DNA of 64,000 nt from a candidate division WOR-3 bacterium. Its GTDB lineage: Bacteria; Hydrothermota; Hydrothermia; LBFQ01; DSFT01. Each line of letters starts with the position of its first letter. The first letter of the stretch is position 1. The stretch is taken from positions 90,730 to 154,729 of the forward strand of contig JANXBH010000001.1 in NCBI GenBank assembly GCA_025060695.1, read 5' to 3'. Shown piece after piece: positions 4,108-55,469 of the stretch. The notes beneath the pieces were generated by a model. The model saw only the letters and a list, made by a program, of their open reading frames with translations, was not told where the DNA came from and made no database searches. Made by a program: the position numbers and the translations under genes.

Positions 4108-4131
4108 ATTTTAAAGTTTGTACCTTAAAAT
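4108..4131. promoter_or_regulatory. Divergent pair of CTT-TAAAAT-TT -10 boxes
   Basis: Minus box 4108-4113 is 8 nt from ATG 4099; plus box 4126-4131 is 9 nt from TTG 4141. Confidence 0.75.
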
Positions 4132-4140
4132 TTATTGAAT

Positions 4141-4614
4141 TTGGAAAGAAAAAGGTTAGATATTAATATTTACTCACTCGCTGAGATAATAAAAAATAGT
4201 GAAGAACACATTTTAGATTTAGAAACTGGTAGATTATTCAAAATTGATGAAAATATCTTAGATGCTATTGAAAGTGACTATTACGATGACTTAAGTGTAA
4301 ATGAGTTGGAAGTAGTGGAAATTTTAAAAGAGGTTTATAATGGTTCTAAGAGGTTTGTTCAAGTTCCAAAAATTTCAGAGGGAGACATAATAAATATCAT
4401 TATGGAAATTAGAGAAAATTTGGATGATATGGATGAATTAAAAGAAAAACTTCTTGAAATTGCATCATCTGAAAAAGTGTATAGAAAAATTAGATATTTG
4501 ATAGATAAAAATGAGGAATTTGAAAAAATATGGAATTATTATCTTTGGTTGTATACAGTAAAAAAGGCAAAGGCTTGGCTTTTATCTCTTGGATTTGAAA
4601 TTAACCAACCATAA
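4141..4614 (+). CDS. UPF0158-like hypothetical protein
   Basis: LDLETG motif, acidic, W..Y...AKAWL C-terminus; TTG 4141 chosen from -10 spacing (track start 4135). Confidence 0.6.
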   Translation: MERKRLDINIYSLAEIIKNSEEHILDLETGRLFKIDENILDAIESDYYDDLSVNELEVVEILKEVYNGSKRFVQVPKISEGDIINIIMEIRENLDDMDELKEKLLEIASSEKVYRKIRYLIDKNEEFEKIWNYYLWLYTVKKAKAWLLSLGFEINQP

Positions 4615-5274
4615 ATAAAGACCAGATAGCGTCATATGAGGTTCATATTTATAGTCCTTAAAGAACTTTAAAAATAAATTCGCATTTCCACCAGTTATAA
4701 ACTTATGCTTTACATTGAATTCTTTTTCCAATTTTAAAATTAGAGATTTATAGCTATTTAACAAACCAAGTAGTATAGCCTCTTCTGTTGAGTTAGCTAT
4801 TGGTTTTTCCTGAATATCAAAACATGTATTTTCTAAATTTGGTAAAAGCGAAGTACTTTCATGTAAGCATTTTAAATAGTTTTTATAACCAAGTAATATA
4901 AAACCACCTTTAAATTCGCTATCTACTATATCTATTACTGTTGCTGTCCCAAAGTCTACCACTATAGAAATTTCCCCTAACTTGTATGAAATGTAATGTG
5001 CCTTTGCTATTCTATCGCTACCAAGTGTTTTTGAATAGTTCAACTTGACTAAACTACTTTCATAATTAAGTTCATACAAACTCTTATTTTTTAGTACTTC
5101 ACTTAAGTTTATTTCTTTTAAAACACTACAATATGCAATTTCTTCTATTTCATGAAAAAATTCCTGAATTTTTGATATTTCTACTAAACTAAATGTATTA
5201 AATTTTATTAAATCACCACTACTTACTATACCGCACTTAATTAAACTATTTCCAATATCTACTAAACCGACTAT
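4582..5274 (-). CDS. coaX: Type III pantothenate kinase (ATA start)
   Basis: LGSDR, VDFGTAT, TGG motifs; the frame stays open 65 codons upstream of the track start to ATA-GTC-GGT-TTA-GTA-GAT-ATT-GGA-AAT-AGT (VGLVDIGNS, the conserved N-terminal motif). Confidence 0.9.
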   Translation of the reverse strand: MVGLVDIGNSLIKCGIVSSGDLIKFNTFSLVEISKIQEFFHEIEEIAYCSVLKEINLSEVLKNKSLYELNYESSLVKLNYSKTLGSDRIAKAHYISYKLGEISIVVDFGTATVIDIVDSEFKGGFILLGYKNYLKCLHESTSLLPNLENTCFDIQEKPIANSTEEAILLGLLNSYKSLILKLEKEFNVKHKFITGGNANLFLKFFKDYKYEPHMTLSGLYLWLVNFKSKR

Positions 5275-5282
5275 TGACCTAA

Positions 5283-5311
5283 ATTTTAAAGCAACATAAC
5301 TGCTTTAAAAT
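5283..5311. promoter_or_regulatory. Divergent pair of -10 boxes
   Basis: Minus box 5283-5288 is 8 nt from ATA 5274; plus box 5306-5311 is 9 nt from ATG 5321. Confidence 0.75.
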
Positions 5312-5320
5312 TTTTACTTC

Positions 5321-6871
5321 ATGGAAGAGTTAAAGAAAGTGTGGAAAGATTTAGTAAATAAAAAAATAGAGCTTATAAATTATAATGAATTTGAAAAGAT
5401 GTATGGTGCAAGCATGCTTGAGATGGTAGCTAGTCCAAATCCTTATTTTTCTATAAGGGAAAATGTTATAAGGGTAAATAGTTGGGCAAAGAGATTTACA
5501 AATTTTGAAAGTGGGAAAAAAGATGAGGAGCTTGCACTAATTTTATCTGACTATATAAGAAATGGCTATAAAACAGAATATTTAGATATAATTGAAGAGA
5601 TAAAAAGTGAAGGTACAGATGACCAAAGGATATATAAAACACTTGGTAGAAAAGGTTATTTATACTACAAAGAATTGCCTTTTTTTTATAGGGAAGAACC
5701 ATGTAATCCTATAATAGTAGAGGATAACTATAAGAGAGTTGATTTAAGAAACTTATATACATTCTCTGTTGATGAGGAGGGAACGATAGAAGTAGATGAT
5801 GCAATTAGCATAAACGGAAATAAGGTATATATCCACGTAGCAGACGTTGCATCATCAATAAAATTATACAAAAACCTATCATTACTTGAAAAAGTAATGA
5901 GCTTGTACTTGCCTGAAGAAAATTTTTACTTATTTTCAAATAAGGTGATTGAGAGTTTTTCTCTATATAAAGGTGATAAAAAAGCATTAACTTTAGTTAT
6001 GGAATTTGATGAAAACTTAAATCTAAAAAGCTACAATTTTATAAGAACGATTATCAGCGTAAAAGATAGATTTGACTATAAAACCTTTGAAAAAGTTTTA
6101 TCTATAGAGCCATTTAAAAAACTTCTAACAATTTCAAGAAAATTTCAACTGATAAGATTAAATAATGGTGGCTATAACATAAATTTACCTATGAAAAAAT
6201 TCAAAATAGAGGACGATAGTATACACTACGAGCTTATAAATTTAAATTCAAAAAGTTATACTACAATTTCAGAACTTATGATACTTTATAACTACTTGGC
6301 TTCCAAACTACTAAGAAGACTGGAATTTTCTGCAGTATATAGAAATTATGAGGATAAAGGTCAAATCCAATTAGATGAGAATGATCCCTTATATTACTAT
6401 AAAATTATGAATTTATTCAAACCAACTGTTCTATCTTCTCAACCTAAAGCTCATACTATTATGGGTTTAGATGTATATGCACAATTTACTTCACCTTTAA
6501 GAAGAATTTACGATATCATAAATCAAGAGCAACTACATAGAGCATTAGATAACCAAGAACCAGTTTATCATGCAGAGAAAATAGAAGAGTTTATAAAAGT
6601 TGCAGTTAGAATTGAAAAGAGGAAGAAAAATATACAAAGAGATAGGCTAAACTTTTGGACTTATGTCTATTTGAAAAAATACCATAGTGAAAGAATTATA
6701 AGCGGAGTTGTTTCACAAGCAAATAATAAATGGTCGGAAATTTTCTTCCCAAAGTTTCTTATAACTGAAAAGGTATATTACAAAGGTCTTGAAGTTGGCA
6801 AAAAAATAAATTGTTTAATAAAAAATGTAGATCCATTCGGAAATAAAATGGAGATTTTCATAGTAAAATGA
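5321..6871 (+). CDS. RNB-domain exoribonuclease (RNase II/R family)
   Basis: SVDEEGTIEVDDAIS, HVADVA, YAQFTSPLRRIYD. Confidence 0.9.
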   Translation: MEELKKVWKDLVNKKIELINYNEFEKMYGASMLEMVASPNPYFSIRENVIRVNSWAKRFTNFESGKKDEELALILSDYIRNGYKTEYLDIIEEIKSEGTDDQRIYKTLGRKGYLYYKELPFFYREEPCNPIIVEDNYKRVDLRNLYTFSVDEEGTIEVDDAISINGNKVYIHVADVASSIKLYKNLSLLEKVMSLYLPEENFYLFSNKVIESFSLYKGDKKALTLVMEFDENLNLKSYNFIRTIISVKDRFDYKTFEKVLSIEPFKKLLTISRKFQLIRLNNGGYNINLPMKKFKIEDDSIHYELINLNSKSYTTISELMILYNYLASKLLRRLEFSAVYRNYEDKGQIQLDENDPLYYYKIMNLFKPTVLSSQPKAHTIMGLDVYAQFTSPLRRIYDIINQEQLHRALDNQEPVYHAEKIEEFIKVAVRIEKRKKNIQRDRLNFWTYVYLKKYHSERIISGVVSQANNKWSEIFFPKFLITEKVYYKGLEVGKKINCLIKNVDPFGNKMEIFIVK

Positions 6872-7644
6872 AAGCCCTTGTGCTTTCAGGTGGAGGTTCA
6901 AAAGGTCTTGCTCATATCGGTGTGATAAAAGCAATTGAGGAGAAGAAAATTGAATTAGATTTTATTGTAGGATGTTCAATGGGAGCTTTAGTAGGAAGTT
7001 TGTATGGACTTGGATATTCTTCACATGCTATGACTTCTATTGCAAGACTTATTATTTCAAAAAAGTTGCTAAATTTTAAGTTTTCATTGAGTGAGTTTTT
7101 TGATTCAAAGAAAATAGATAGTTTATTAGATGAAATATTTCAAGAAACCACATTTAGAGAGCTTAAAATTCCTGTTTATATAACTGCTGTGGACTTACTA
7201 AATTACAACTATATTGTTTTTAATGATGGATTGCTAAAGAATGCAATAAGAGCGTCTATTTCATTGCCTGTTATTTTTAAGCCTGTAATGATAAATGGCA
7301 GGGTCCTAATAGATGGTGGAATTATTGAAATACTTCCTCTAAGTGTTGCGAGGAAATTAGGAGCAAACTATATCATTGCTGTAAACGTTGTAGGTTCATT
7401 ATCAGAAGATATATACTTTGAAGATAGTAGCAATGTAAAAAGTATAGATTATGGACTTATTAGAACTGCTCTAAGTTCTATATATATTTTACAAAGGTCT
7501 CAAATTCAAAAGACTATAGAATCATTTAAGCCAGAGGTACTTATAAATGTAGATACAAGTGGTATTAGTCCTATAGACTTTAACCTTAATTTAGAAGATA
7601 TTATAAGTAGAGGCTATGAAAGTGCAAAGAATGCTTTAAAATGA
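6868..7644 (+). CDS. Patatin-like phospholipase
   Basis: LSGGGSKG, GCSMG, DGG. Confidence 0.92.
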   Translation: MKALVLSGGGSKGLAHIGVIKAIEEKKIELDFIVGCSMGALVGSLYGLGYSSHAMTSIARLIISKKLLNFKFSLSEFFDSKKIDSLLDEIFQETTFRELKIPVYITAVDLLNYNYIVFNDGLLKNAIRASISLPVIFKPVMINGRVLIDGGIIEILPLSVARKLGANYIIAVNVVGSLSEDIYFEDSSNVKSIDYGLIRTALSSIYILQRSQIQKTIESFKPEVLINVDTSGISPIDFNLNLEDIISRGYESAKNALK

Positions 7645-8006
7645 ATATAGGTATAGATATAGTTGAAGTTAAAAGAATTGAGAATTTATATAGAAAATTT
7701 GGTGAAAAGTTTTTACATCGCATCTTTACAGATGAAGAAATAAATTATTGTTTTTCAAGGAAAAATAGTTTCCATAGTTTTGCAGGTAGATTTGCTATAA
7801 AAGAGGCTGTTCTTAAGGCTCTTGGAATTGGTATGACATCTGGATTTTCATTTAAAGATATTGAAGTTGTAAATTTAGAAAAAGGAAAACCAGTGGTAAT
7901 ACTAAATGGTAAGCTAAAAGAAATGCTTGGAAATAGAAAAATAGAAATATCTATAAGTCATTCAGATAACTATGCAATAGGTGTATGTATAATTCACAAC
8001 CTTTAA
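7641..8006 (+). CDS. acpS: Holo-ACP synthase
   Basis: GIDIVE, AGRFAIKEA, SISHS. Confidence 0.95.
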   Translation: MNIGIDIVEVKRIENLYRKFGEKFLHRIFTDEEINYCFSRKNSFHSFAGRFAIKEAVLKALGIGMTSGFSFKDIEVVNLEKGKPVVILNGKLKEMLGNRKIEISISHSDNYAIGVCIIHNL

Positions 8007-8009
8007 AAT
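8004..8009 (+). promoter_or_regulatory. -10 box overlapping the acpS stop codon
   Basis: CTT-TAAAAT, 6 nt before ATG 8016. Confidence 0.65.
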
Positions 8010-8015
8010 ATAAGC

Positions 8016-9749: not shown

Positions 9750-10288
9750 TATTTTTACCTGATATCCTTACAACGATTAGATTTATAATAACTTTTTTTG
9801 TGTTTTTTTCTATTGGAAAAAATAATTTACTTACATTGTTCTTATTATTTATTGCATTTATTACAGATATACTTGATGGACACATTGCGAGGAAATTGGG
9901 TATTCAAAATAGGGAGTTCGGTAAGGCATACGACCACTTAGTTGATAAACTTTTAGTTTTTGTAGTTATCTACGGACTTGTTTTATATAAGAATTTACCA
10001 AATTGGGCATTAATATTTTTCCTGATGAGAGAATTTCTTTTAATTATTGGTGTCATATTTCTATGGTTTTATAAAATGAAAATTCAAGGCTCTAATATTT
10101 TAGGTAAAATTTCAGGAGTGGTTTTTTATTTAATGGTAATTAGTTATCTTTTTAATTTAGATATTAGCTTCACAATGCTAATTATTTCAATTGTTTTTTC
10201 ATTACTTGCATTTTTAATCTACGCTATAAGAGGTATATCAGAATTTTATAAATATGTTGTTTCTAATAGCTCTAAAGTTAGATATTGA
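9746..10288 (+). CDS. CDP-alcohol phosphatidyltransferase (PgsA-like)
   Basis: TDILDGHIAR..G...D..VDK motif. Confidence 0.88.
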   Translation: MIFLPDILTTIRFIITFFVFFSIGKNNLLTLFLLFIAFITDILDGHIARKLGIQNREFGKAYDHLVDKLLVFVVIYGLVLYKNLPNWALIFFLMREFLLIIGVIFLWFYKMKIQGSNILGKISGVVFYLMVISYLFNLDISFTMLIISIVFSLLAFLIYAIRGISEFYKYVVSNSSKVRY

Positions 10289-10931
10289 GTTAAAAAGAAT
10301 AAAGTTCAATGGTGATTATATTGACGTATATAAGCCAAAGGAAAATGGAAGTTATCCATTTGTTATATTTTCAGGAGGTATGAATACACCTTCAAGAAGG
10401 TATGAATCCTTCGCAAGATACATATCAAGTTATGGTTATGTAGTGATTATTCCTGACTATAAAGGGTGGCTATTTTTAACTTTCATACCATCTAAGATTT
10501 TGAAAATTCTTGATAACTTATCTAAGATTGATAGTTCAATAAAAAATGAAGGATGTCTTGGTGGACATTCTCTCGGTGCATACTTTTCACTTTTAGTTTC
10601 TTATAAAAGAAGTTCTATAAAGTGTGTTTTTGTATTTTCTCCACCTGCTCTGTTATTAAGATATGATAAAATCAAAATTCCAGTTTTGATTTTTGCTGGG
10701 ACAAATGACGAAATTACAAAAATAGAGAGTAATCAAAAAATTATATATGATAATCTGAAAACTGATAAGAAACTTGTAATTATTGAAGGTGGTAATCATA
10801 ATGGTTATATGGATAGATGGGCTTTTGTAGAAGGAATAACAGATGGACATTTAAAGATTGAACATGCAAAACAGCTCAGTATAGTAAGGGATAGTGTGTT
10901 GGAGTTCTTAAATTCTATATTTAAGCATTAA
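10254..10931 (+). CDS. Alpha/beta hydrolase (chlorophyllase/dienelactone hydrolase-like)
   Basis: GHSLG nucleophile elbow, GTNDE, GGNH catalytic triad. Confidence 0.8.
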   Translation: MLFLIALKLDIELKRIKFNGDYIDVYKPKENGSYPFVIFSGGMNTPSRRYESFARYISSYGYVVIIPDYKGWLFLTFIPSKILKILDNLSKIDSSIKNEGCLGGHSLGAYFSLLVSYKRSSIKCVFVFSPPALLLRYDKIKIPVLIFAGTNDEITKIESNQKIIYDNLKTDKKLVIIEGGNHNGYMDRWAFVEGITDGHLKIEHAKQLSIVRDSVLEFLNSIFKH

Positions 10932-10934
10932 AAT
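10929..10934 (+). promoter_or_regulatory. -10 box overlapping the upstream stop codon
   Basis: TAAAAT-TT, 9 nt before in-frame CTG 10944. Confidence 0.6.
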
Positions 10935-10943
10935 TTTGTTCTT

Positions 10944-12071: not shown

Positions 12072-12086
12072 GTTTTGATAAATTTT

Positions 12087-12104
12087 AAAGGGGGAACGGC
12101 CCCC
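12087..12104 (-). terminator. GC hairpin after the TonB receptor stop (putative weak terminator)
   Basis: GGGGG-CCGTT-CCCCC then TTT on the minus strand; the only conspicuous non-tRNA GC hairpin I noticed. Confidence 0.5.
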
Positions 12105-13927: not shown

Positions 13928-13992
13928 CCTCCTTTTTTTATTATTTACTTTCTATTTTTTAAAGCTCAAATTTAAAGTTAAAAATTAGGAGG
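13928..13992 (-). promoter_or_regulatory. Putative SD/anti-SD hairpin controlling TonB receptor translation
   Basis: CCTCCT (Pro-Pro codons, 13987-13992) is complementary to the AGGAGG SD (13928-13933). Confidence 0.55.
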
Positions 13993-14238
13993 AGAGCGAA
14001 TATTTGGAAAAATAAGACTATAAGTTTCGTGCTTTTTAGTTTTCATTGATATTGAAACAATGTATAGAACTCTCGGTTTTTCTATTTTTAATGAAAAACC
14101 TTCGATTTTAGGAGGATTGTTTTGATAGTGTAAGATAAGACATTCTTCTAATATTGAATGATGAATATGATTGTGAAAGCTTGAAATTACAATTGCATTT
14201 AATATAAATATTAATGTGAGAAATGAGAAAATCTTCAA
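13978..14238 (-). CDS. DUF2946/CruR-like leader peptide with His/Cys motif and C-terminal RSPP
   Basis: Hydrophobic N-terminus, HNHIHH..EECLILH, ends IRSPPNF; directly upstream of the TonB receptor; -10 box at 14248-14253. Confidence 0.7.
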   Translation of the reverse strand: MKIFSFLTLIFILNAIVISSFHNHIHHSILEECLILHYQNNPPKIEGFSLKIEKPRVLYIVSISMKTKKHETYSLIFPNIRSPPNF

Positions 14239-15439
14239 GGTTTTATAATTTTAAAGTCCGCATCTATCAAAAATACTCCTTTTTTTACAATTTTTTCACC
14301 ATTCTTTATACCTTCAATTAAATAACCATCTTTTACATCAGTAATAATCTTTACTTCTTTTGCTTTAAATGAGCCATCTTCAAAAACATATACTATATCA
14401 CTATTTCCTGTTCTAATTACTGAACTTTTCGGAACAATCTTTCCCCTTATTTCCTTCACTATCTTACCTACTTCATAATTATTCTCAAAGAAAGTATTAT
14501 CATTTTTAAGAATAACGATAATTTCAAAGTAGTTTGCACTATTGGAAGAAGGTAAAATCTCTACTACTCTACCCTTAGTATTTCTAATTTCAACTATATC
14601 TCCTTTTTGAACATATAAAAAATCGCTTTTTCTAACGCTACCTATAAACTGAACAATAGAATTATTTACAATTTCCATAACTACAGAACCAGCCTCAAAT
14701 TTTTCACCTTCTGTTATATCAATTTTCAAAACTCTTCCACTAATAGGACTTCTAAAAATTATACTATCCGAAAATATATCTTCAGGACTTATTTGTAATA
14801 ACTTAATCCTCTCAAGAATAAAACTATCTTTAGTAATATCGAACTCCGATTTTATTCTTAAAATTTCAGGAGAATAAAAACTAAAAATCTTCTCTCCTCT
14901 ATTTATATATTCTCCTTCGTTTTGAATATAGAGATTTAAAACGTATCCAGAAAATCTTGGAACAATTTTTGTAATTGCATTTTTTGGAAATTTTACTACA
15001 CCTTCTATGATTATTTCCTTATAACCAACTGTATCTTTAACTAAAAAAAATCAATAAGTTTATTATCTATTTGAGAATGTGTATGCTTAACTTCCCCCTT
15101 AAATGGTATATTTATTAGCTTTTCAATTTTGTTTCCATCTAACTCTAAAATAATAAACCACTCACCACTCATAGAAACAAAAACTTTTCCTTCGTAATTT
15201 TTATTTAGTTCAAATACTTCTGTCATGGCAGGCATGCCTGGCATTTCCGGCATATACAAATACGCCTTAAATGACCTTGGTTTTGGTTCTATTATAAACT
15301 TTACCTTATTTTCTCTTTCCTTTAGCATTCCATCAGTAGTTAAGATTTTTACTTTATATCCTTTATCTACTATTTCAAGAACTTCTTTATAATTTTGACC
15401 ACAGGATATAAGAAAAAGTAATATAAAAATTTTCCTCAT
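14235..15439 (-). CDS. CusB-like RND periplasmic adaptor with N-terminal YtkA/FixH-like Met-rich lipoprotein domain; frameshifted at T8 (15043-15050)
   Basis: 0 frame MRKIFILLFLISC..MPEMPGMPAM..IDFF*; the -1 frame is open from the T8 run (LVKDTVG..IVPRFSGYV..FYSPE..RSPISG) into track ORF 14235-14729. Confidence 0.8.
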
Positions 15440-15449
15440 ATTCAAAATT

Positions 15450-16484
15450 TTAAAACATAAACTTTAACTTATAGTAGCTTAGGATTGCATTATATTTCAA
15501 CCTGTTTATTTCTCTTTCCATATTCAATATTTCGTTTAAATTATAGTAGTATTCTACTAAAGATATATCACCTAAAAGCTTTGAAATATTTAAAGTCGTC
15601 ATAAGTTCATCTCTTCGGCTTTTATATAACTCATATTGACTAACTGATAGTTTATATTCAGATATAGTTCTTTCAATTTCAAGCTTAATATATTCTATTG
15701 AAGAACTATAGTAATTTCTATATGCATCTTTCAATTTTACTCTTGTCTTTATTTCACCTAATGGAAATGTATTAATAGTAAATCCTATCATAAATCCATA
15801 TGTATTATCTTTTCTTATTAAAACCATAGGTTTTACATTAGGAACAAGCTTTATATAGCTTAATTTTAAAGAATTTTCAATTGTCTTAAGTTCATAGCTT
15901 AACATATTATAATCTACGGTCTCTTCCAACTTATAGTCTTTTAATTTTGGAATACTTTCAATATCTTCAATGCTATCTATCTTGGCATAGTAGTTTAGTG
16001 TAATCATTAAATTATTATATTTTGCCTTAAGAAAATCCAAGTTTATATTCAATTCTCTTATTTTTGCATTTATCTCTAATATTTTTGAAAATTCCGTAGT
16101 TTTATCATATTTATAAGCACTTAGTATTAGCTTCCTTATTTTTTCATAGTTTTCTAAAATTTTATATAGAATTTCCAATTCTTTTTTTAATTCAATAGCT
16201 TGTAAATAAGTCTCTATTGCTTCAAGTATGAATTCATTCCTTTCTTTTAAATTTTTATATTTCATCGCAACTATTTCATCTTTAATTATAAAAGACTCAT
16301 ATATCATATGGGGCGATATTTCAGTTCCTATACTTATATTTCCACTTTCAAACATTGCATTGTATTCTACCATAAGCTGTGGATTTAAAGCACTGTAAAT
16401 TTGATATTCGTAATACTTTACTTTTTTATGCTCCATTACTTTCTTTATAAAATCCTCTATGTTCGTAAATATTAAGTAAATAAT
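15450..16484 (-). CDS. TolC/CusC-like outer-membrane efflux protein (probable ATT start)
   Basis: Helical repeats, adjacent to cusB/cusA; frame open upstream of ATG 16436 to ATT codons 16481/16484/16487 just after the -10 box. Confidence 0.6.
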   Translation of the reverse strand: MIYLIFTNIEDFIKKVMEHKKVKYYEYQIYSALNPQLMVEYNAMFESGNISIGTEISPHMIYESFIIKDEIVAMKYKNLKERNEFILEAIETYLQAIELKKELEILYKILENYEKIRKLILSAYKYDKTTEFSKILEINAKIRELNINLDFLKAKYNNLMITLNYYAKIDSIEDIESIPKLKDYKLEETVDYNMLSYELKTIENSLKLSYIKLVPNVKPMVLIRKDNTYGFMIGFTINTFPLGEIKTRVKLKDAYRNYYSSSIEYIKLEIERTISEYKLSVSQYELYKSRRDELMTTLNISKLLGDISLVEYYYNLNEILNMEREINRLKYNAILSYYKLKFMF

Positions 16485-16491: not shown

Positions 16492-16507
16492 ATTTTAGAG
16501 TTAAAAT
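16492..16507. promoter_or_regulatory. Divergent -10 boxes for the TolC-cusB unit and cusA
   Basis: Minus box 16492-16497; plus box 16502-16507 is 6 nt before TTG 16514. Confidence 0.6.
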
Positions 16508-16513: not shown

Positions 16514-19507
16514 TTGCTTGAAAAAATTGTAAATTTTTCTCTGAAAAATAAAACTACAATTTCACTTATCGTTATACTTTTAACTATTGTTGGAATATAT
16601 TCCATATTTAAAGTTAATATAGATGCAATACCAGATATTTCAGAAAATCAAGTAATTATTACCGCAAGGTATGAAGGACAGGACCCCATTACTATTGAGG
16701 AGCAAGTTAGCTATAAGTTAGTATCAAGACTACTATCAATACCTAAAATTAGAACTATTAGAGCAATTTCAATGAATAATATTGCTTTTGTATACATAAT
16801 TTTTAAAGATGGTGTAAATATATATTGGGCAAGGTCTAGAGTTTTAGAGTATATTGCAGGATTAGATATTCCAAAAGAAGTAAATATACAAATTGGCCCT
16901 CCCTCATCTTCTATATCTTGGATAGTTCAATATGTACTAATATCAGATAAACATACTATTGATGAGTTAACTGCATTTAACGAGTTTATATTAAAACCAT
17001 ATCTACAGGCAACAGAAGGTGTATCAGAAATAGCTACAATAGGTGGTTTTATAAAGGAATATCAGATAGACGTTGACCCATATAAATTAAAATCTTATAA
17101 TTTAAGTTTTGAAGAAGTTTTAAAGGCTATTGAAAATGCCAACTTATCAACAGGTGGAAGGTTTATAGAAATAGCCGAAAGATATTATAACATAAGGGGA
17201 TACGGATATATTAGAACATTGGAAGATATTGAGAATATTTCTATAAAAGGCATAAAAATTAAGGATATAGGTATTGTTCAAATAGGTCCTTCAATAAGAG
17301 AAGGAGCTTTGGACTATAATGCAAAAGGTGAATCGGTAGGTGGTATTATTATTTCAACAATAGGAGAAAATGCGTATAAAGTAATTAGAAATGTAAAAGA
17401 AAAAATAAAGAAGATAAATTTGCCTGAAGGTATGAAAATAGAAATCGTTTACGATAGAAGTTATTTAATTGAGGAAAGCATTAAAACATTGATTAGCGCA
17501 ATATTAAAAGAAAGTCTTATAATCGCAATATTAGTTTATATTTTTTTAGTTTCAATAAAATCTTCTATTTCAATAATTATTATACTTCCTCTTTCGGTAA
17601 TTTTATCTATAATTTTTGTAAAAATTTTTAACATTACTTTAAACATAATGAGTCTTGGTGGTTTTATACTATCGCTTGGAGTTTTGATTGATATGGCGGT
17701 TGTTCTTGTAGAAAGCAGTCATAAGTATATTGAGCAAGGATATTCCAAAATAGAAGCAATAGAAAAATCAGTTAAGGAACTTTCAAGAAGTATTTTCTTT
17801 TCGCTATTAATCATTACAATATCATTTTTACCAGTTTTCTTTCTTACTGGTGAGGAAGGAAAACTATTTAAGCCATTAGCTATTACCAAAACCTTTTCCA
17901 TGTTAATAGCTTCAATACTTTCTATTTCTTTCATAATCATTTTAATATATTTCTTCCTCCCAAATAAAACCAAACCTGAAATGGAAAATCCTATAAATAG
18001 AATAATTTTGAAAACTTACGAGTTCACATTCAAAATTGTATATAAATATCCATTAGCTTTTATAGTGTTTTTTATTTTGTTTTCCGTTTTCGGTATTTTT
18101 ATTTATAAAACCATAAAAAGCGAATTCTTACCACCATTTAATGAAGGCTCAATTTTATATATGCCATCTACAACCTCAGGTATTTCTATACAAAAAGGTA
18201 TTGAAGTACTTAGATATATGGATTCTATTATTATAAGTAATGAAAATGTAAGAGCGGTTTTTGGAAAAATTTCAAGGGCAAACACAGCTACTGACCCTGC
18301 ACCACCTAGCATGATTGAAACTAATATAGAGCTAAAAGACCCAAAGAAAATATACGAAGTTATAAATGAATTAAGCCATAAACTAAATATCCCTGGATTT
18401 ATAAACACATTTAGTATGCCAATTAGAACAAGGATAGATATGTTAAAAACAGGCATTAGAACTCCACTTGGAATAAAAGTATATGGAAATGATCCTTATA
18501 TTACCGAAAGTTTAGCAATAGAGATAGAAAAATTATTAAGGAGTTTAAGAGAGACAAAATATGCCTATGCAGAAAGACTTTCAAATTCATACTACATTAT
18601 AATTAGTCCAAGAAGAGAAAGAATTTCCCAATACAATATAAGTATAAAGGAGATTATGGATATTATAAATTTTTACATTGGTGGAAATACTATTACTTAC
18701 AAGATTGAAAATAGATTTAGCTATCCAATTAGAGCAAGAATTCTAAGAGACTATAGAGAAATTGAATATATTAAGAGGATACCTATTTTTACAACTTCAG
18801 GTTTTGTAAGCTTAGAAGATATATGCGATATTCAAATTAAAAGAGGTTTTGAAATGATTAGAAATGAAAATGGATTTATTACAAGTTATATTTATCTTGA
18901 TAGTCATGACGACTATTTAAAATATATTCAAAAAGTAAATTCTATAATAAATTCATTCATAAAATTCCCCTCTGGATATTTTTATGAGGTTTCAGGTCAA
19001 TACGAAGACTTAAAGAGAGTTCAAAGCACACTTGTTTTTATTATTCCAATGACCATATTCATTATATTTATTTTGCTATATATGAACTTTAAGAGTTTAG
19101 TAAAGAGTATTTTAGTATTGATATTACTTATATTTCCACTTTCGGGAGCCTTTATTACTATAAAGTTATTAAACTACAATTTATCAATTGCGGTATGGAT
19201 TGGAATTGTTGCACTTTTAGGTATAAGTACGGAAATTATTGTAGTAAAAATTGCGTTTTTAGATTTAGGTTTTGAAAAGTTCAATAACAAATACGAGGCT
19301 ATACACTGGGCAGTGATAACAAGATTAAGACCAATTACAATTACTACACTAACCGCATTCTTTTCACTAATTCCTATAATGTTTGAATTTACACTTGGTG
19401 CAGATATTATAAAAAGAATAGTTGCACCCATGATAGGAGGTATATTCTTTACATTCATTTTAAGTTTATATATCTTGCCAAGTTTTTATGTAATGTTTAA
19501 AAAATAG
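16514..19507 (+). CDS. cusA: CusA/CzcA heavy-metal efflux RND permease (Cu/Ag type)
   Basis: DAIPDISENQV, YWARSRVLE, EGKLFKPLA, Met-triad contexts LYMP, TDPAPPSM, MPIRTRIDML. Confidence 0.92.
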   Translation: MLEKIVNFSLKNKTTISLIVILLTIVGIYSIFKVNIDAIPDISENQVIITARYEGQDPITIEEQVSYKLVSRLLSIPKIRTIRAISMNNIAFVYIIFKDGVNIYWARSRVLEYIAGLDIPKEVNIQIGPPSSSISWIVQYVLISDKHTIDELTAFNEFILKPYLQATEGVSEIATIGGFIKEYQIDVDPYKLKSYNLSFEEVLKAIENANLSTGGRFIEIAERYYNIRGYGYIRTLEDIENISIKGIKIKDIGIVQIGPSIREGALDYNAKGESVGGIIISTIGENAYKVIRNVKEKIKKINLPEGMKIEIVYDRSYLIEESIKTLISAILKESLIIAILVYIFLVSIKSSISIIIILPLSVILSIIFVKIFNITLNIMSLGGFILSLGVLIDMAVVLVESSHKYIEQGYSKIEAIEKSVKELSRSIFFSLLIITISFLPVFFLTGEEGKLFKPLAITKTFSMLIASILSISFIIILIYFFLPNKTKPEMENPINRIILKTYEFTFKIVYKYPLAFIVFFILFSVFGIFIYKTIKSEFLPPFNEGSILYMPSTTSGISIQKGIEVLRYMDSIIISNENVRAVFGKISRANTATDPAPPSMIETNIELKDPKKIYEVINELSHKLNIPGFINTFSMPIRTRIDMLKTGIRTPLGIKVYGNDPYITESLAIEIEKLLRSLRETKYAYAERLSNSYYIIISPRRERISQYNISIKEIMDIINFYIGGNTITYKIENRFSYPIRARILRDYREIEYIKRIPIFTTSGFVSLEDICDIQIKRGFEMIRNENGFITSYIYLDSHDDYLKYIQKVNSIINSFIKFPSGYFYEVSGQYEDLKRVQSTLVFIIPMTIFIIFILLYMNFKSLVKSILVLILLIFPLSGAFITIKLLNYNLSIAVWIGIVALLGISTEIIVVKIAFLDLGFEKFNNKYEAIHWAVITRLRPITITTLTAFFSLIPIMFEFTLGADIIKRIVAPMIGGIFFTFILSLYILPSFYVMFKK

Positions 19508-24058: not shown

Positions 24059-24082
24059 AGTTTAAAATTTTAAAGTTAAGTG

Positions 24083-28105: not shown

Positions 28106-28129
28106 AACTTGAAAATTTTAAAGGTTTTA

Positions 28130-29830: not shown

Positions 29831-29851
29831 ATTTTAAAGCAACCTTAAAAT
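29831..29851. promoter_or_regulatory. Divergent -10 boxes
   Basis: Minus box 29831-29836 (7 nt to GTG 29823); plus box 29846-29851 (8 nt to ATG 29860). Confidence 0.75.
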
Positions 29852-32982: not shown

Positions 32983-33007
32983 GATTTTGAGAATTTTAAA
33001 GTTTTAG

Positions 33008-33985: not shown

Positions 33986-34565
33986 CTTCAAATTTTAAAC
34001 TTAGAAAATCTCTAAGCTTTTTTAATGCAATAGCTCTATGACTAATTTTATTTTTAACTTCCATTTCTATTTCCCCAAATGTTTTTCCAATTGGTTTATA
34101 GTAAAATATTGGGTCATAACCAAAACCTTTATCTCCTCTTATTTGAAAACCAATTTCACCCTCCACCTTTCCCTCAAATACATGGCTTTCACCGTTGTTA
34201 TTTATAAACACAATGACACAATGAAAATACGCACTTCTATTTTCTTTATCTTTCATAAGTTCTAAGATTTTTTCTAAATAGTCTGGATTTCCTTTTTGAA
34301 ACTCAGCTGAATGAACACCGGGAAAACCACCTAACGCCTCTATAAAAATACCAGAATCATCAGATATTACTGGCATTCCTGTTATTTCATGAACTTTCTT
34401 TGCCTTAATTAGTGCATTTTCTAATAGCGTCTTTCCAGTTTCCTCTATTTGAATATCTAAACTTATATCTTCCAAAGACAGAAATTCTATATCCTTAAAG
34501 TCCTTGAAAAAATTTTTAATTTCTTCTATTTTATGTTTATTTCTTGAAGAAATTAGAATTTTCAG
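33963..34565 (-). CDS. rdgB: Non-canonical purine NTP pyrophosphatase (CTG start)
   Basis: DDSG, GFGYDPIF, SHR; frame open upstream to CTG-AAA-ATT-CTA.. (KILISSRNKHK). Confidence 0.92.
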   Translation of the reverse strand: MKILISSRNKHKIEEIKNFFKDFKDIEFLSLEDISLDIQIEETGKTLLENALIKAKKVHEITGMPVISDDSGIFIEALGGFPGVHSAEFQKGNPDYLEKILELMKDKENRSAYFHCVIVFINNNGESHVFEGKVEGEIGFQIRGDKGFGYDPIFYYKPIGKTFGEIEMEVKNKISHRAIALKKLRDFLSLKFEDEGNKYF

Positions 34566-34734: not shown

Positions 34735-34750
34735 CTTTATAATTTTAAAG
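34735..34750. promoter_or_regulatory. Overlapping bidirectional -10 boxes CTTTATAATTTTAAAG
   Basis: Plus TATAAT 34738-34743 (8 nt to ATG 34752); minus TAAAAT 34742-34747 (11 nt to tRNA-Thr). Confidence 0.75.
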
Positions 34751-38897: not shown

Positions 38898-38926
38898 ATA
38901 AACATATCCTTTATAATTTCAACACT

Positions 38927-40245: not shown

Positions 40246-40276
40246 ATTTTAAAGTTATTAGCTTGTCCTTTAAAAT
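40246..40276. promoter_or_regulatory. Divergent -10 boxes (pyrF / tRNA-Ser pair)
   Basis: Minus box 40246-40251; plus box 40271-40276. Confidence 0.7.
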
Positions 40277-44347: not shown

Positions 44348-44357
44348 CTATTAAATT

Positions 44358-44930
44358 TTAAAGGCTGTCATAAAGATTTTCTAATGCCTCTTTTCTAATT
44401 ACATTTCTTTCGAATTCTCCAAACTTTACCAAGACTTGATTGTTTAAAATCTTAAATACTAAGGCAATTGAAACAAATGGCTTTAGATATTCTAAAAACT
44501 TATATAAACTCGGATTAAAATTTAAAATACCTTCACTTTCGCTATGCAAAACTCCCTCAGGGAATATAAAAAAATAGTACTTTTGAGGATATGTATTTAG
44601 CAGTTCTATTGTTTTTCTCATTGAAATTATTTTTTCATGAGTAGTTTTAAATGGTAATACTTTTGCGAATTTTTCAAAATAAGGATAATTTCTATATTCC
44701 TCCATCCAAATAAGAATCTTCCTATCTTTCAAAATGGTTTTTCTCAGCCTATTTAATATATGAACATCGTAGTAGTAAAAATGGTTAGAATAGATAATAA
44801 TTTTTTGTTCCTTATATAAGCTAAACTCTGGTGCATTTAATACCTTAAATGACTTAAATCTACTTAGCTGACTCTCAAGAGTAAAATCTACTAAAAACTT
44901 TGGATAAAACTTTTTAAAATATTCTAACAT
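44358..44930 (-). CDS. Lysophospholipid acyltransferase-like protein
   Basis: NHFYYYD (HX4D) and FPEG motifs. Confidence 0.7.
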   Translation of the reverse strand: MLEYFKKFYPKFLVDFTLESQLSRFKSFKVLNAPEFSLYKEQKIIIYSNHFYYYDVHILNRLRKTILKDRKILIWMEEYRNYPYFEKFAKVLPFKTTHEKIISMRKTIELLNTYPQKYYFFIFPEGVLHSESEGILNFNPSLYKFLEYLKPFVSIALVFKILNNQVLVKFGEFERNVIRKEALENLYDSL

Positions 44931-46922: not shown

Positions 46923-46946
46923 AGTTTAAAGTAGATGCTTTAAAAT
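46923..46946. promoter_or_regulatory. Divergent -10 boxes (thiolase / tRNA-Val)
   Basis: Minus TAAACT 46923-46928 (7 nt to GTG 46915); plus TAAAAT 46941-46946 (11 nt to tRNA). Confidence 0.7.
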
Positions 46947-47699: not shown

Positions 47700-47724
47700 T
47701 TATAGCTTTAAACTTTAGGGCTTT

Positions 47725-49795: not shown

Positions 49796-49798
49796 AAG

Positions 49799-49870: not shown

Positions 49871-49883
49871 TAAGTATAAAATT

Positions 49884-50744
49884 TTAAAGCATAGATAAAA
49901 TTCTTTGAGAATCATAAACTTGTAAATCAATGTCCAAGTAGTATATATTTTCTTTATTTTCAATTTTTACAAAGTCCTTTAAAGTGGTTATTATAGGAAG
50001 GTTGAATTTCCTTAATGGTTTTAAATCACTTTCTTTATAGTAGTGATGGTCAGGAAATTCTTTAAAATATATAAGATTAAATGTTTTACTTACTATATTC
50101 TTAAAACTCCTACTATCCGCAATGCCACAGAAAGCCACAACATCTTTAAAGTTATATGGATTTATTATTTTATATCTTATGCTGACAGCAGGCTTTCCAT
50201 AAAATTCAGAAATCTCAAAAAACTCAGAAAATTTAAAATTTATTACTATAAAATCTACCCTCTTTATTTCAGTTATAGGTTCTCTATATTTCCCAAATGG
50301 AAATACTTTCCAACCCCTAAGTTCATTGTAGTTTATAATCAATATTTTTTTATCAAAGTCTATCCTCCAATACTGTAATGCATCATCAAATAGTAAAATA
50401 TGAGGTTTAAATAGTTCAATGCCAATTTTTGATGCAAGAAATCTGTCTTTATATACAAGAACTTTCAAACCTGTTTTAAGATGTATTAAATATGGCTCAT
50501 CACCTACTAAGCTGACATCTATATCTTTGTCCCTAATTAACTGAACATGCTTGTTTTTCCTCTTATAACCTCTACTTAGAACAATTACATTATACCTCTG
50601 TTTTAGCTTATTTGCTAAGAATATAGTAAATGGAGTTTTCCCTGTTCCACCAAATGAAAAATTTCCAATAGCTATTGTTTTTGCATCTAACTTTTCTGGC
50701 TTTATTAAAGATCTATGTATCTTAGAGATATAGTAGTAAATCAC
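49884..50744 (-). CDS. lpxK: Tetraacyldisaccharide 4'-kinase
   Basis: GNFSFGGTGKTP, SRGY, GDEP, DDALQ, FPDHH, TTLKD. Confidence 0.93.
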   Translation of the reverse strand: MIYYYISKIHRSLIKPEKLDAKTIAIGNFSFGGTGKTPFTIFLANKLKQRYNVIVLSRGYKRKNKHVQLIRDKDIDVSLVGDEPYLIHLKTGLKVLVYKDRFLASKIGIELFKPHILLFDDALQYWRIDFDKKILIINYNELRGWKVFPFGKYREPITEIKRVDFIVINFKFSEFFEISEFYGKPAVSIRYKIINPYNFKDVVAFCGIADSRSFKNIVSKTFNLIYFKEFPDHHYYKESDLKPLRKFNLPIITTLKDFVKIENKENIYYLDIDLQVYDSQRILSML

Positions 50745-51328
50745 ATTATTTCTTTTTCATCTATAAGATGACCCATTTTTTTAATCTTCGTTAAAATGTA
50801 ATTTTTATTGTATTTATTTGCTTTTACATAAACTGGTATTCTCTCCACAATTTCAATACCACATATACTAAGATGTTTTATCTTTTGTGGATTATTCGTC
50901 ATTAATCTTACCTTTTTTACACCTATATCTTTTAGAATTTCACATGCAACTTTATAGTTTCTTAAATCAGCTTCAAAACCAAGCTGGTGATTTGCTAAAA
51001 CTGTATCATATCCCAAGTCCTGTAAATAGTAAGCTTTTACTTTATTTATAAGTCCTATTCCTCTACCCTCTTGGTTTAAATATATCAAAATTCCTCTTCC
51101 TTCACTTGAAATTTTTTCTAATGCATATTTTAATTGAGCTCCACAATCACATCTTAAAGAGCCAAATGTATCCCCCGTAATACATTGCGAATGTACCCTT
51201 ACTAATATATTATCTCCAACTTCACCCATAATCAATGCAATGTGCTCTTTACCACCTTCAGAGTATACTCTTATAGTAAATTCACCAAAAATTGTAGGAA
51301 GACTTGCTTGAGCTTCAAATTTCACCAT
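50741..51328 (-). CDS. ribA: GTP cyclohydrolase II
   Basis: RVHSQCITGD..RCDCG, QEGRGIGL, TNNP. Confidence 0.96.
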   Translation of the reverse strand: MVKFEAQASLPTIFGEFTIRVYSEGGKEHIALIMGEVGDNILVRVHSQCITGDTFGSLRCDCGAQLKYALEKISSEGRGILIYLNQEGRGIGLINKVKAYYLQDLGYDTVLANHQLGFEADLRNYKVACEILKDIGVKKVRLMTNNPQKIKHLSICGIEIVERIPVYVKANKYNKNYILTKIKKMGHLIDEKEIM

Positions 51329-52172: not shown

Positions 52173-52181
52173 TATTTTAAA

Positions 52182-52211
52182 ATTTTAAAACACATTTATT
52201 CACTTTAAAAT
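52182..52211. promoter_or_regulatory. Divergent -10 boxes
   Basis: Minus box 52182-52187 (9 nt to ATG 52172); plus box 52206-52211 (7 nt to GTG 52219). Confidence 0.7.
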
Positions 52212-52218
52212 TTAAAAA

Positions 52219-53037: not shown

Positions 53038-53753
53038 GAAAATTCTCAGATATTGTATTTTCAAGATTATCAAATGTTTTTAGAAGTTTATTTATAGCAA
53101 TTATAGTAATAAATGGTGTTTTGTTATTTTCTCTTTCTAAAATTTTTGAAAAATCTTCAGATATTGGCTTTTTAAGAGGACAATTAACCTCATTTTCTCT
53201 AATGATTTATGATATTATTGCAGGGATACACTCAAAGGAGTTTGCAAAATTATCACTTTCTGAAAGTATAAATAAAACTGAGCCAATATTAAAGAAATAT
53301 AGAGATGATGTTTGGTCAAAGGATTTTGGAAGATTCATTGAAAAATTTAAACTTTTTATAGAAAATCCAACTCAAAAAGCAGCAAATGAAATATTTCTAT
53401 TAGCTGAAAATTTAAATAGAAAACTGATTGAAATTGATGAAGAAAGCAGAAAAATTAGTTCAATGGGGGTTATTGTAGTAATAGCTTTAAATATCTTTTT
53501 TCTCGGTGCTTTAGGATTCTTTATGATAAACTACACTTATAAACTGTCTTCAGAGTTTTCCGCACCACTTATTGAAATAAGGAACATTATTTCAAAAATA
53601 GCCATAGGTAGTATAGATAAAGCGGTAAAATATGAGGGTAATATAGAGGAAGTTTATGATATATTCCAGAGTATTGAAACCTTAAGGGAAGATTTGTATC
53701 AAAGTAAGCTTAGGATACAAGAAATATTAAAGAAATACAGAGAAGGGAAATAG
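53034..53753 (+). CDS. Two-TM sensor-like protein with HAMP-like domain and no output domain
   Basis: TM, helical periplasmic region, TM, then PL..I..IA.G..EEV..I..L. Confidence 0.6.
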   Translation: MRKFSDIVFSRLSNVFRSLFIAIIVINGVLLFSLSKIFEKSSDIGFLRGQLTSFSLMIYDIIAGIHSKEFAKLSLSESINKTEPILKKYRDDVWSKDFGRFIEKFKLFIENPTQKAANEIFLLAENLNRKLIEIDEESRKISSMGVIVVIALNIFFLGALGFFMINYTYKLSSEFSAPLIEIRNIISKIAIGSIDKAVKYEGNIEEVYDIFQSIETLREDLYQSKLRIQEILKKYREGK

Positions 53754-53768
53754 CTTTAAAATTATAGT

Positions 53769-55454
53769 ATGATATTAAATTTGAAAGTGAAAAATTTCTT
53801 GCTATTAAAGGAAGCACATATAGAATTTGATAAGGGTTTTAATGTGCTAACAGGTGAAACTGGAGCAGGAAAGTCATTATTACTAAAAGCATTAAGTTTA
53901 GCACTTGGAGATAGAATTGATTGGGAAATATTTACTGAAGAAAAGTCCTTAATTGAAGTTCAAGTTTTAGTTCCAGACGAGTTTTTAAGTCTCTTTGAAA
54001 ATTATGGTATAGAATTAGATGGAAATTTACTAATAATAAGAAGAATTATAGAAGGTGATAAAAGAAGAAGTAGAATATATGCAAATGACAATCTTGTTCT
54101 TTCAAAGACTATAAATGAAATAATAAGAAATCTGATAGAAATTCACGGACAATACGATACATATAAGTTATTCAATGAAGAGTATCAGATGGAAGTAATT
54201 GATAGATATGCAAAATCAAGAGTTTTTGAGAACGATTATCAAGCCAATATTTTAGATAAATATGCAAACAATGAAAACTTAATAGAAAGCTACAGAAAAA
54301 TTTATAAAGATTGGCTTTACTTAAATAATATCTATAACGAATATAAGGAAAAGGAAGAGAAATATATTCAAGAACTTGAGTTTTTAAAATATCAATTGAA
54401 TGAATTAGAAGAAGCAAATTTAAAAATAAATGAAGAGCAAGAATTGTTAAGGAAATTAGAATATTTAAGAAAAATAGAGGAAATTAGAGAAATAAAGCAA
54501 CTAATTAAAAATATTGTTTTTGAAGGAGAAGAGAATGTAATTTCTAAGTTATACTTTATTTTAAGAAAACTTGAGAATTTAGAAGATATTCAGGAATTTA
54601 GGGAATTAAAGGAAAAATTCGAGAATATTATATATGAACTAAAGGAGCTAAAACACTACTATAAAGATAACAATTTGGAAGAATACGAAAGCTTAGACTT
54701 TATACAAGAAAGGTTATTTTTACTAAATAGACTAAAAAAGAAATATTCAAAAAGTATTGAAGAATTACTAAACTATAAGGAGGAACTAAAGGAGAAAATA
54801 AAAAAGATAGAGAATTTACCTTTTGAAATTAAGAATTTATCTGAGAAAATTAAAGATTTAAGTAAAAATTTAGAAAACTTGGCAAATGAAATAAGTAAGC
54901 GTAGAAAGAACGCAAGCAAGAATTTTAGAGAAGAAATTATTAAAACTTTAAAGGAACTTGGAATGCCAGATGCGGAGTTTTTAACAAAATTTGAAGAAAT
55001 ACCTTTAGGTTATAATGGTAAGGATAGGGTTGAATTTTTGTTTTCTGCTAATAAAAATTTTCCACCAAGACCATTAAGGAAAATAGTATCAGGTGGAGAG
55101 CTTTCGCGCTTTGCTCTTTCACTAAAACTTGCAATAGCAGGTAAAGAAAGTCCCACAACATTAATATTTGATGAGATTGATACAGGTATAGGTGGAGAAA
55201 CTGCTCTAAAAGTTGCACAAAAACTGCAAGAACTTTCAAAATTCTACCAAGTTATAGTAATTACACATTTACCTCAAATTGCAAGCAAATCAAACAAGCA
55301 CTTTTTAATAATGAAAAAAGACGGTATAGCCCAAATAAATGAATTAGATGAAAAAGAAAGAGTTTTAGAAATTGCAAGAATGCTATCTGGTATAGTTTCA
55401 GATGAAAGTTTAAAACATGCAAAGTTTTTACTTTCTAACAGAAGTGCTTTATAA
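53769..55454 (+). CDS. recN: DNA repair protein RecN
   Basis: TGETGAGKS, IHGQ, SGGELSR, FDEIDTG, THLPQIA. Confidence 0.95.
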   Translation: MILNLKVKNFLLLKEAHIEFDKGFNVLTGETGAGKSLLLKALSLALGDRIDWEIFTEEKSLIEVQVLVPDEFLSLFENYGIELDGNLLIIRRIIEGDKRRSRIYANDNLVLSKTINEIIRNLIEIHGQYDTYKLFNEEYQMEVIDRYAKSRVFENDYQANILDKYANNENLIESYRKIYKDWLYLNNIYNEYKEKEEKYIQELEFLKYQLNELEEANLKINEEQELLRKLEYLRKIEEIREIKQLIKNIVFEGEENVISKLYFILRKLENLEDIQEFRELKEKFENIIYELKELKHYYKDNNLEEYESLDFIQERLFLLNRLKKKYSKSIEELLNYKEELKEKIKKIENLPFEIKNLSEKIKDLSKNLENLANEISKRRKNASKNFREEIIKTLKELGMPDAEFLTKFEEIPLGYNGKDRVEFLFSANKNFPPRPLRKIVSGGELSRFALSLKLAIAGKESPTTLIFDEIDTGIGGETALKVAQKLQELSKFYQVIVITHLPQIASKSNKHFLIMKKDGIAQINELDEKERVLEIARMLSGIVSDESLKHAKFLLSNRSAL

Positions 55455-55469
55455 TTTTGGCACATAATT

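Follow-up and report, generated by a model that had tools for sequence, protein, structure and literature searches.

A -10 box adjoining the open reading frame is a defining trait of Deinococcus-Thermus (PMC4007540, PMC12340547) and of GeneMarkS-2 group C (PMC6028130), and in Deinococcus this adjacency of box and start has been shown experimentally (PMC12340547, PMC4007540). The present analysis concerns a box of this kind in a window of 64,000 nucleotides (nt), the whole stretch of DNA analysed (G000:C11:90730-154729), from a candidate division WOR-3 bacterium whose genome (G000) comprises 1.50 Mb at 30% GC and is 95% complete. A preliminary description of the window had listed 31 TAAAAT-like hexamers and taken them for a near-universal, lineage-specific, -10-only promoter of leaderless genes. 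The genome-wide analysis suggests, with a probability of about 0.87, that the word R-C-T-T-TAAAAT-T-T is the housekeeping sigma70 promoter of the genus, an extended -10 element acting without a -35 element at most genes and giving leaders of about 0-5 nt with no Shine-Dalgarno (SD) sequence.

As in Deinococcus-Thermus, a TAnnnT core stands a few bases before the start, there is no general -35 element, and a second class of leadered genes with SD sequences is present; the boxed share of reading frames is 495/1450 here and about 30% there. Unlike Deinococcus-Thermus and group C, the genome displays a near-invariant word of 12-13 bases with a CTT extension and fixed T-6 and T-5. The core of the case is a new lineage and a new promoter word for a mechanism already established. 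To this are added a genus-specific word, a family-by-family change of the extension, a -35-optional split of two gene classes, a large predicted short-leader class and conserved near-cognate starts. No paper on leaderless expression in WOR-3 was found in a literature search run without subscription papers. The terms 'leaderless' and 'promoter' are absent from the accessible text of a WOR-3 survey (PMC12542636), WOR-3 names are absent from the searchable supplements of PMC6028130 (six files, one not searched), and none stands among the matches listed in the ten supplement files of PMC12340547, which are unrelated species.

The word was characterized in 1450 genes of at least 50 codons, called with our own simple dicodon-model caller, using a matrix learned on divergent gene heads and a site threshold of 9 bits. 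Its extension is as sharp as its core, with frequencies of 0.90 for R-16, 0.90 for C-15, 0.81 for T-14, 0.91 for T-13, 1.00 for T-6 and 0.92 for T-5. The frequency of G-14 is 0.00, so the T-15 G-14 of the TGn extended -10 promoter is absent and the extension is CTT, as had been proposed. A box lies 5-11 nt before the start in 290 of the 390 divergent heads as compared to 29, 38, 23 and 29 in four shifted control windows, which bears out the expected positional enrichment, and at only 19 of 498 overlapping internal genes. The fixed, untrained pattern TAWAMT, sought at the same 5-11 nt, marks 245/390 divergent heads (260/390 when longest-frame starts are used) and 10/313 genes that overlap their neighbour by 1-8 nt. 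Spacings among the 495 boxed genes are 5 nt in 7, 6 nt in 112, 7 nt in 145, 8 nt in 76, 9 nt in 88, 10 nt in 44 and 11 nt in 23, in agreement with the group C description of a Pribnow box about 6-10 nt from first-gene starts. The term 'near-universal' was too strong for 290/390 divergent heads and 495/1450 called genes, with 99 further sites lying 18-300 nt before unboxed genes. Sites above 9 bits number 902, of which 484 are at boxed starts, 33 at tRNAs, 119 are 12-300 nt before an unboxed gene and 186 are inside genes. No 10-11-nt periodic AA/TT signal was detected upstream of the boxes.

The word heads 33 of 39 first or single tRNA or tmRNA genes and none of seven downstream cluster members, and the 16S and 23S rRNA units carry one box each. 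The box is best read as a promoter because tRNA and rRNA heads possess it while downstream tRNAs and overlapping internal genes (19/498) mostly lack it, which upholds the promoter interpretation first proposed; a T-A-n-n-n-T core at the heads of transcription units, those of stable RNAs included, is what a sigma70 housekeeping promoter displays. The absence of an SD between box and start was likewise borne out, none of 493 boxed starts having one. An SD precedes 72 of 168 unboxed genes with gaps of 0-14 nt and is weak in overlapping genes (29/218), and the anti-SD CCTCC of 16S rRNA is intact. The use of SD by the other genes, namely these 72 and 42 leadered heads, is also a property of group C.

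Among the stable RNAs themselves, the 16S (G000:C8) and 23S (G000:C7) genes are unlinked, each with its own promoter, and only tRNA-Ala follows the 16S. Several tRNAs of G000:C55 and C75 (Arg, Thr, Leu, Gln) begin 7-8 nt after the hexamer, which predicts precursors with leaders of 0-2 nt. A second initiator-type tRNA-Met (G000:C56:287-362) lies on a 683-bp contig of 55% GC, has no box and is probably foreign to the genome bin.

In the proposed mechanism, the RpoD holoenzyme would read T-12 to T-7 as the -10 hexamer, R-16 C-15 T-14 T-13 would replace TGn, T-6 T-5 would form a fixed start of the discriminator, and transcription would begin about 7 nt after the hexamer. This placement agrees with starts measured in 49 bacteria, which centre 7 bp after the -10 element (PMC12641261), and with base composition. 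Of 26 tRNA promoters, 20 carry a purine at position 7 past the hexamer and 18 carry a C at position 8; G7-C8 is present in the two rRNA promoters, and spacing-9 genes show a purine at position 7 (0.77) followed by pyrimidines; ACT is the commonest sequence at spacing 9 before ATG (22/76). Genes at spacing 6-7 (257/495) would be leaderless or carry 1 nt and those at spacing 8-11 (231/495) would have 2-5-nt leaders, typically R-C-U, so that about half of the boxed genes may be truly leaderless. The claimed 0-4 nt is thereby approximately retained, the spacings implying about 0-5 nt. Ribosomes would then enter from the 5' end without SD, probably as 70S particles, and internal operon genes, many of which overlap by 4 nt, would rely on coupling or on pairing of an SD with the intact anti-SD. 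Leaders of 1-5 nt make up 13% in the Deinococcus comparison, set against the 231/495 whose spacings imply 2-5 nt here. The predicted leaderless or short-leader share of divergent heads, 74%, is higher than that of D. deserti (60%, by measurement) and of group C genomes (25-50%, by prediction), although these measures are not like for like.

The best surviving alternative accepts the promoter and differs in leader length only. The polymerase would start at the start codon for all spacings 6-11 by scrunching, leaving nearly all boxed mRNAs leaderless, and the pyrimidines at positions 8-10 would only block an earlier start. The base before ATG or GTG is a pyrimidine in 68-89% at every spacing 6-11, in line with a Y-1/R+1 rule, and other leaderless systems seldom have leaders of at least 2 nt and translate them poorly (PMC8459731). 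However, the tRNA and rRNA promoters show the same R7-C8-T9-T10 pattern without a start codon, and ATG/GTG genes have a purine at position 7 at frequencies of 0.80 (spacing 9) and 0.84 (spacing 10); we regard scrunching as unlikely, though as a serious contender on this point. A Kozak-like A at -3 was also considered and rejected, as the purine tracks the box (position 7) and not the ATG.

The same box would serve a second, smaller class of genes. Of the 99 sites 18-300 nt before unboxed genes, 42 are followed by an SD-like word before the gene; these genes have longer leaders with GGAGG and often a TTG 17-18 nt upstream of the box. Intermediate spacings of 12-17 nt are scarce (9/390 divergent heads), and one promoter appears to serve the large leaderless-type class and the leadered class alike. 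At the 495 leaderless-type boxes, TTG at a spacer of 17-18 nt occurs in 19 as compared to 16.5 expected, and neither TTGACA matches nor the column profile revealed a -35 element; the TTGACA-like sequence 16-18 nt upstream of a canonical -35/-10 promoter is thus lacking there and occurs in a minority of the SD-led promoters. Upstream of the rRNA boxes stand TTGAAT at 18 nt and TTGATA at 17 nt. The '-10-only' claim holds for the leaderless-type boxes and fails for the leadered class and for both rRNA promoters. A higher expression of SD-led heads was not evident from a crude codon proxy (p = 0.10).

Inspection of the sigma factor, which the preliminary description had recommended, revealed genus-level changes. 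The RpoD of G000, 70% identical to that of a Candidatus Hydrothermia (WOR-3) genome, keeps the equivalents of H455 and E458 (residues are numbered after E. coli sigma70). At the T440 position each of the six genus-level RpoD sequences carries I or M, and at 461 M or V, with changes beside the retained 4.2 helix, whereas in the sister genus and family both positions are T and the residues beside the helix are the usual ones. In E. coli, T440I acts as a suppressor of a -12 mutation, and the extended -10 is held by regions 2.4 and 3.0 (PMC2613000). As in the TGn extended -10 promoter, with its E458/H455 contacts (PMC2613000), sequence just upstream of the hexamer would replace the -35; unlike it, the extension here is R-16 C-15 T-14 T-13 in place of T-15 G-14, and C-18 with C-15 in the sister family. 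The T440 change was rejected as the cause of CTT, as the sister genus keeps T440 yet has C-15 (65-68%) and T-14/T-13. Its CTT is weaker, so the change may at most accompany a sharpening of the motif; it is a single evolutionary event confounded with GC content, and the link between RpoD changes and extension is a lead only.

A dedicated DNA-binding protein or non-sigma70 factor that recruits the polymerase to the box was considered as its reader and is given little credence. The word is unusually invariant and partly self-complementary, with 67 opposite-strand pairs at a 4-nt offset, and G000 encodes two further sigma70-family genes. On the other side, the core fits T-A-n-n-n-T at -10 relative to the inferred start, TTG joins it at 17-18 nt in the leadered class, and it heads rRNA and tRNA genes. 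Housekeeping sigma factors transcribe rRNA and tRNA genes. CarD was rejected as a reader, since its matches in 58 of 64 class genomes are all in long frames (414-1019 aa, Mfd- or RecG-sized) and no stand-alone CarD-sized frame was found in the 64 genomes searched.

A non-SD ribosome-binding site on leadered mRNAs, of the kind seen in GeneMarkS-2 group B and recognised perhaps by bS1, would also explain a spacing of 5-11 nt, which is SD-like. A full-length bS1 is encoded (573-aa frame, six S1 matches), and group B is common in FCB bacteria (PMC6028130). Yet group B motifs stand at initial and internal genes alike (PMC6028130), whereas the box is scarce at overlapping internal genes (19/498), heads untranslated genes (the 33/39 first tRNA or tmRNA genes and both rRNA units) and in 42 genes lies upstream of a separate SD, which renders this explanation very improbable.

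That AT-rich intergenic composition alone produces the pattern can practically be dismissed: although the genome has 30% GC and chance would account for about 279 of the 902 strong sites, the positional peak is sharp, C-15 occurs in 90%, 27 window sites exceed 12 bits as compared to a mean of 2.8 in resampled sequence, the equally AT-rich relatives G048, G007 and G011 (30-34% GC in sampled DNA) have 6, 3 and 1 exact matches, and relatives at 51-54% GC keep the box-before-start architecture.

Besides this chance expectation, several points weigh against the promoter reading or narrow it. Divergent heads without a close box number 100 of 390, and 35 of these have no strong site within 300 nt. 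The count of 290/390 is partly circular, the matrix having been trained on the divergent heads that it later scored, and all starts depend on the caller. The information content of the word, 15.9 bits against about 12.2 needed for 650 sites, exceeds the requirement, so that the word can be specific without a -35, and was computed on matrix-selected sites. All transcription starts were deduced from sequence. If the start were fixed at position 7, TTG codons at spacing 7 should be preceded by a purine, which was seen in 8/21 as compared to 40/124 for ATG/GTG (p = 0.62); the negative outcome leaves exact leader lengths uncertain. TTG at a spacer of 17-18 nt occurs in 10 of the 42 SD-led boxes (0.8 expected), and region 4.2 of RpoD keeps the RERVRQIE recognition helix. 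This helix and the -35 signal at SD-led and rRNA promoters suggest that the promoter is -35-optional and not -35-less; -35-optional promoters have been shown experimentally in D. radiodurans (PMC12340547).

All 31 hexamers listed for the window were found where they had been placed. The sites are given below with the low coordinate of minus-strand hexamers first; distances are from hexamer to start codon or, for tRNAs, to the 5' end given by ARAGORN.

4108..4113, minus strand: -10 hexamer with the ATG of 2873-4099 at 8 nt; forms a divergent pair with 4126+
4126..4131, plus strand: -10 hexamer, 9 nt before an in-frame TTG (4141-4614)
5283..5288, minus strand: -10 hexamer, 8 nt before an ATA, the likely coaX start
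4582..5274, minus strand: type III pantothenate kinase CoaX, read from ATA 5272-5274; Pfam PF03309 from residue 4
5306..5311, plus strand: -10 hexamer, 9 nt before the ATG of 5321-6871
8004..8009, plus strand: weak box (6.4 bits) with ATG at 6 nt; its TAA stops 7641-8006
10929..10934, plus strand: box of a ZIP transporter; its TAA stops 10254-10931; candidate starts are an in-frame CTG at 9 nt and TTG at 30 nt
12082..12087, minus strand: box of a PCu(A)C chaperone; candidate starts are an in-frame ATA at 10 nt and TTG at 25 nt
14248..14253, minus strand: box, 9 nt before the TTG of a putative 86-codon frame absent from the gene calls
15447..15452, minus strand: box, 7 nt before ATG; its TAA stops 15450-16436
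16492..16497, minus strand: box; candidate starts are in-frame ATT at 7 and 10 nt and ATG at 55 nt
16502..16507, plus strand: weak box (4.2 bits), 6 nt before the TTG of 16514-19507
24067..24072, minus strand: box, 8 nt before ATG; overlapped by reverse site 24063+
28115..28120, minus strand: box, 9 nt before ATG; reverse site 28111+
29831..29851, both strands: divergent box pair, 29831- with GTG at 7 nt and 29846+ with ATG at 8 nt
32993..32998, minus strand: box, 10 nt before ATG
33992..33997, minus strand: box, 6 nt before ATG
34738..34747, both strands: overlapping opposite-strand boxes, 34738+ with ATG at 8 nt and 34742- heading a tRNA-Thr/tRNA-Tyr unit at 11 nt
38912..38917, plus strand: TATAAT box, 9 nt before ATG
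40246..40276, both strands: divergent box pair, 40246- with GTG at 5 nt and 40271+ heading two tRNA-Ser genes at 12 nt
44355..44360, minus strand: box, 7 nt before ATG; its TAA stops 44358-44930
46923..46946, both strands: divergent box pair, 46923- (TAAACT) with GTG at 7 nt and 46941+ heading tRNA-Val at 10 nt
47709..47714, plus strand: TAAACT box, 10 nt before ATG
49881..49886, minus strand: box, 10 nt before tRNA-Gly; its TAA stops 49884-50744; reverse partner 49877+
52182..52211, both strands: divergent box pair, 52182- with ATG at 9 nt and 52206+ with GTG at 7 nt; 52178+ is the reverse partner of 52182-
53757..53762, plus strand: box, 6 nt before ATG
55450..55455, plus strand: TATAAT box; candidate starts are in-frame ATA at 8 nt, ATT at 11 nt and ATG at 14 nt
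60225..60230, plus strand: strong site of 17.4 bits, newly found, inside frame 60065-60451; candidate internal promoter

With the genome-learned matrix, 29 of the 31 listed boxes exceed 9 bits, 8004+ and 16502+ being the weak ones, and 13 more window sites above 9 bits had been missed, including 60225+ and four reverse-strand partners that overlap listed boxes. When compared with 40 second-order Markov resamples, the window has 40 sites above 9 bits (mean 10.2, maximum 20), 27 above 12 bits (mean 2.8, maximum 7) and 12 above 15 bits (mean 0.7, maximum 2), an excess over chance. Four boxes head tRNAs at 10-12 nt, within the 10-13 nt reported before, and the ATA and ATG spacings given for 55450+ were reproduced. 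The statement that boxes of coding sequences end 5-10 nt before the start holds for 22 of 27 with ATG, GTG or TTG and fails for five (5283-, 10929+, 12082-, 16492-, 55450+), each of which has an in-frame ATA, ATT or CTG 7-11 nt after the hexamer.

Some further features of the boxes were recorded. The TAA of the hexamer is the stop codon of the upstream gene in 46 of 194 boxed same-strand genes genome-wide and, in the window, at 8004+, 10929+, 15447-, 44355- and 49881-. Of the 67 opposite-strand pairs overlapping at a 4-nt offset, 10 serve two divergent genes, and the remainder would be antisense or idle starts; the window holds 34738+/34742-, 24063+/24067-, 28111+/28115-, 49877+/49881- and 52178+/52182-. 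The putative frame behind box 14248- (13970-14238, minus strand) has a hydrophobic N-terminus and may encode a small exported protein.

Start codons of the boxed genes are ATG in 376, TTG in 74 (15%) and GTG in 45, and in-frame TTG is enriched 7-fold over out-of-frame TTG; by comparison, TTG accounts for 0.3% of leaderless genes in D. deserti (PMC4007540). Near-cognate starts were sought at 20 boxes that have an open frame and an ATA, ATT, ATC, CTG or ACG at 5-11 nt but lack a canonical start closer than 18 nt. In eight of them the first ATG, GTG or TTG falls after the beginning of a Pfam domain (MFS, LptF/G, LepB, MurJ, CoaX, NUDIX, EamA and inositol monophosphatase), and the other 12 are uninformative. 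In coaX, the first ATG, GTG or TTG lies 65 codons after the ATA, with PF03309 beginning at residue 4 of the ATA reading. The murJ gene has ATT 5-6 nt after the box in 5/5 genus genomes, one of which shows an in-frame stop immediately before the ATT, and its sister-genus counterpart has TTG. Inositol monophosphatase has ATA, ATT or ATC in the 4/4 genus genomes whose 5' end is intact; the sister genus has ATG there. For lepB the codon is CTG in G000, TTG in three relatives from the genus and, in the sister genus, ATG. The coaX and MFS genes have canonical starts in relatives, which makes their ATA private to G000 and possibly a recent change. In-frame enrichment is weak in 59 open frames (ATA p = 0.015 and CTG p = 0.005, uncorrected; ATT not significant), and ATA is not enriched over all 551 heads, so the near-cognate case rests on homology. 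On this basis the leaderless-type architecture likely extends to rare starts such as ATT, a further difference from the Deinococcus comparison. IF3 was found in 5/5 genus genomes; an alignment of four, which left out the G000 copy, showed no interpretable feature.

The distribution of the word separates the exact sequence from the architecture. The exact pattern with ATG occurs 207 times in G000 and 199-282 times in 4/4 genus relatives (3-14 in the reversed control). The sister genus has 20-21 copies, and none of the other 194 genomes in the phylum sample exceeds 10. De novo motif analysis of 87-320-kb samples per genome revealed boxed divergent heads in the genus (32/54), in the sister genus at 51-52% GC (43/58 and 19/28) and in the sister family (70/84 and 36/50); elsewhere they were 5-11 of 14-28 in five other families of the class, and 11/18 and 4/22 in two outside it. 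No motif was found in the samples of G058, G007 and G041 (8-12 heads each), and a loose pattern set against its reversed control across 64 genomes did not discriminate. The sister-family extension has C-18 (92-96%) and C-15 without a fixed T-6 (samples of G138 and G186), and its pattern gives 115-294 matches in 12/12 genomes of that family as compared to 18-49 in this family. The claim of lineage specificity therefore stands for the exact word, which is genus-specific on these counts, and not for the short-leader architecture, which is order-wide. The near-invariant C-18 coincides with a position near which R451 of E. coli sigma70 lies (PMC3130263).

Such an information-rich and simple promoter, with an extension that differs between sister families (CTT as compared to C-18/C-15), provides a natural series for the reading of -13 to -18 by sigma70 without TGn. 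The box also predicts transcription units and corrects gene starts in these genomes, in which callers restricted to ATG, GTG and TTG truncate CoaX, MurJ, LepB and an inositol monophosphatase. Known leaderless systems strongly prefer AUG or GUG right at the 5' end and tolerate short leaders poorly; in Caulobacter, leaderless initiation drops sharply with near-cognate codons and with short leaders (PMC8459731). G000 appears to break both rules, with the conserved ATT of murJ. A tentative extension, which we hold to be possible and no better than that, is that most expression in the genus is governed by position and not by sequence: a sigma70 re-tuned at regions 2.4/3.0 would read the near-invariant word and set the 5' end 0-5 bases ahead of the coding sequence, and the ribosome would take the first usable codon, tolerating 2-5-nt leaders and UUG, AUU, AUA or CUG, even in essential genes like murJ and lepB. 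If this is true, the transcriptome of the genus would be the most leaderless known in bacteria, its initiation would be a bacterial counterpart of that in mitochondria, and each family of the order would have rewritten the extended -10 code. Mammalian mitochondria share (nearly) leaderless messages and near-cognate AUA/AUU starts (PMC8459731, PMC11775629). Unlike in mitochondria, near-cognate starts are a small minority here (the eight supported cases), anti-SD, IF3 and SD-led genes are kept, and the 5' ends would be those of primary transcripts from a sigma70 promoter, so that the likeness is one of resemblance only. A cultured member of the class, strain sy37, has been described (PMC12542636).

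A separate observation concerns RNase P. The gene for HARP (PF08745, protein-only RNase P; G000:C22:7721-8152, minus strand) loses its frame after codon 34-36, where nine A's follow one another, and the frame breaks at the same place in three genus genomes (G000, G152, G162). RNase P RNA and RnpA were found in 0/7 genomes of this family and in 12/12 of the sister family. Since no RNase P other than HARP was found, polymerase slippage or ribosomal frameshifting likely bridges the break; no HARP paper with the word 'frameshift' stood among the matches listed in the literature search. Called genes rarely contain nine A's in a row (10 cases). The A run is broken and the HARP frame intact in G112 and G119, and the frame is likewise intact in G088, G136 and G006.

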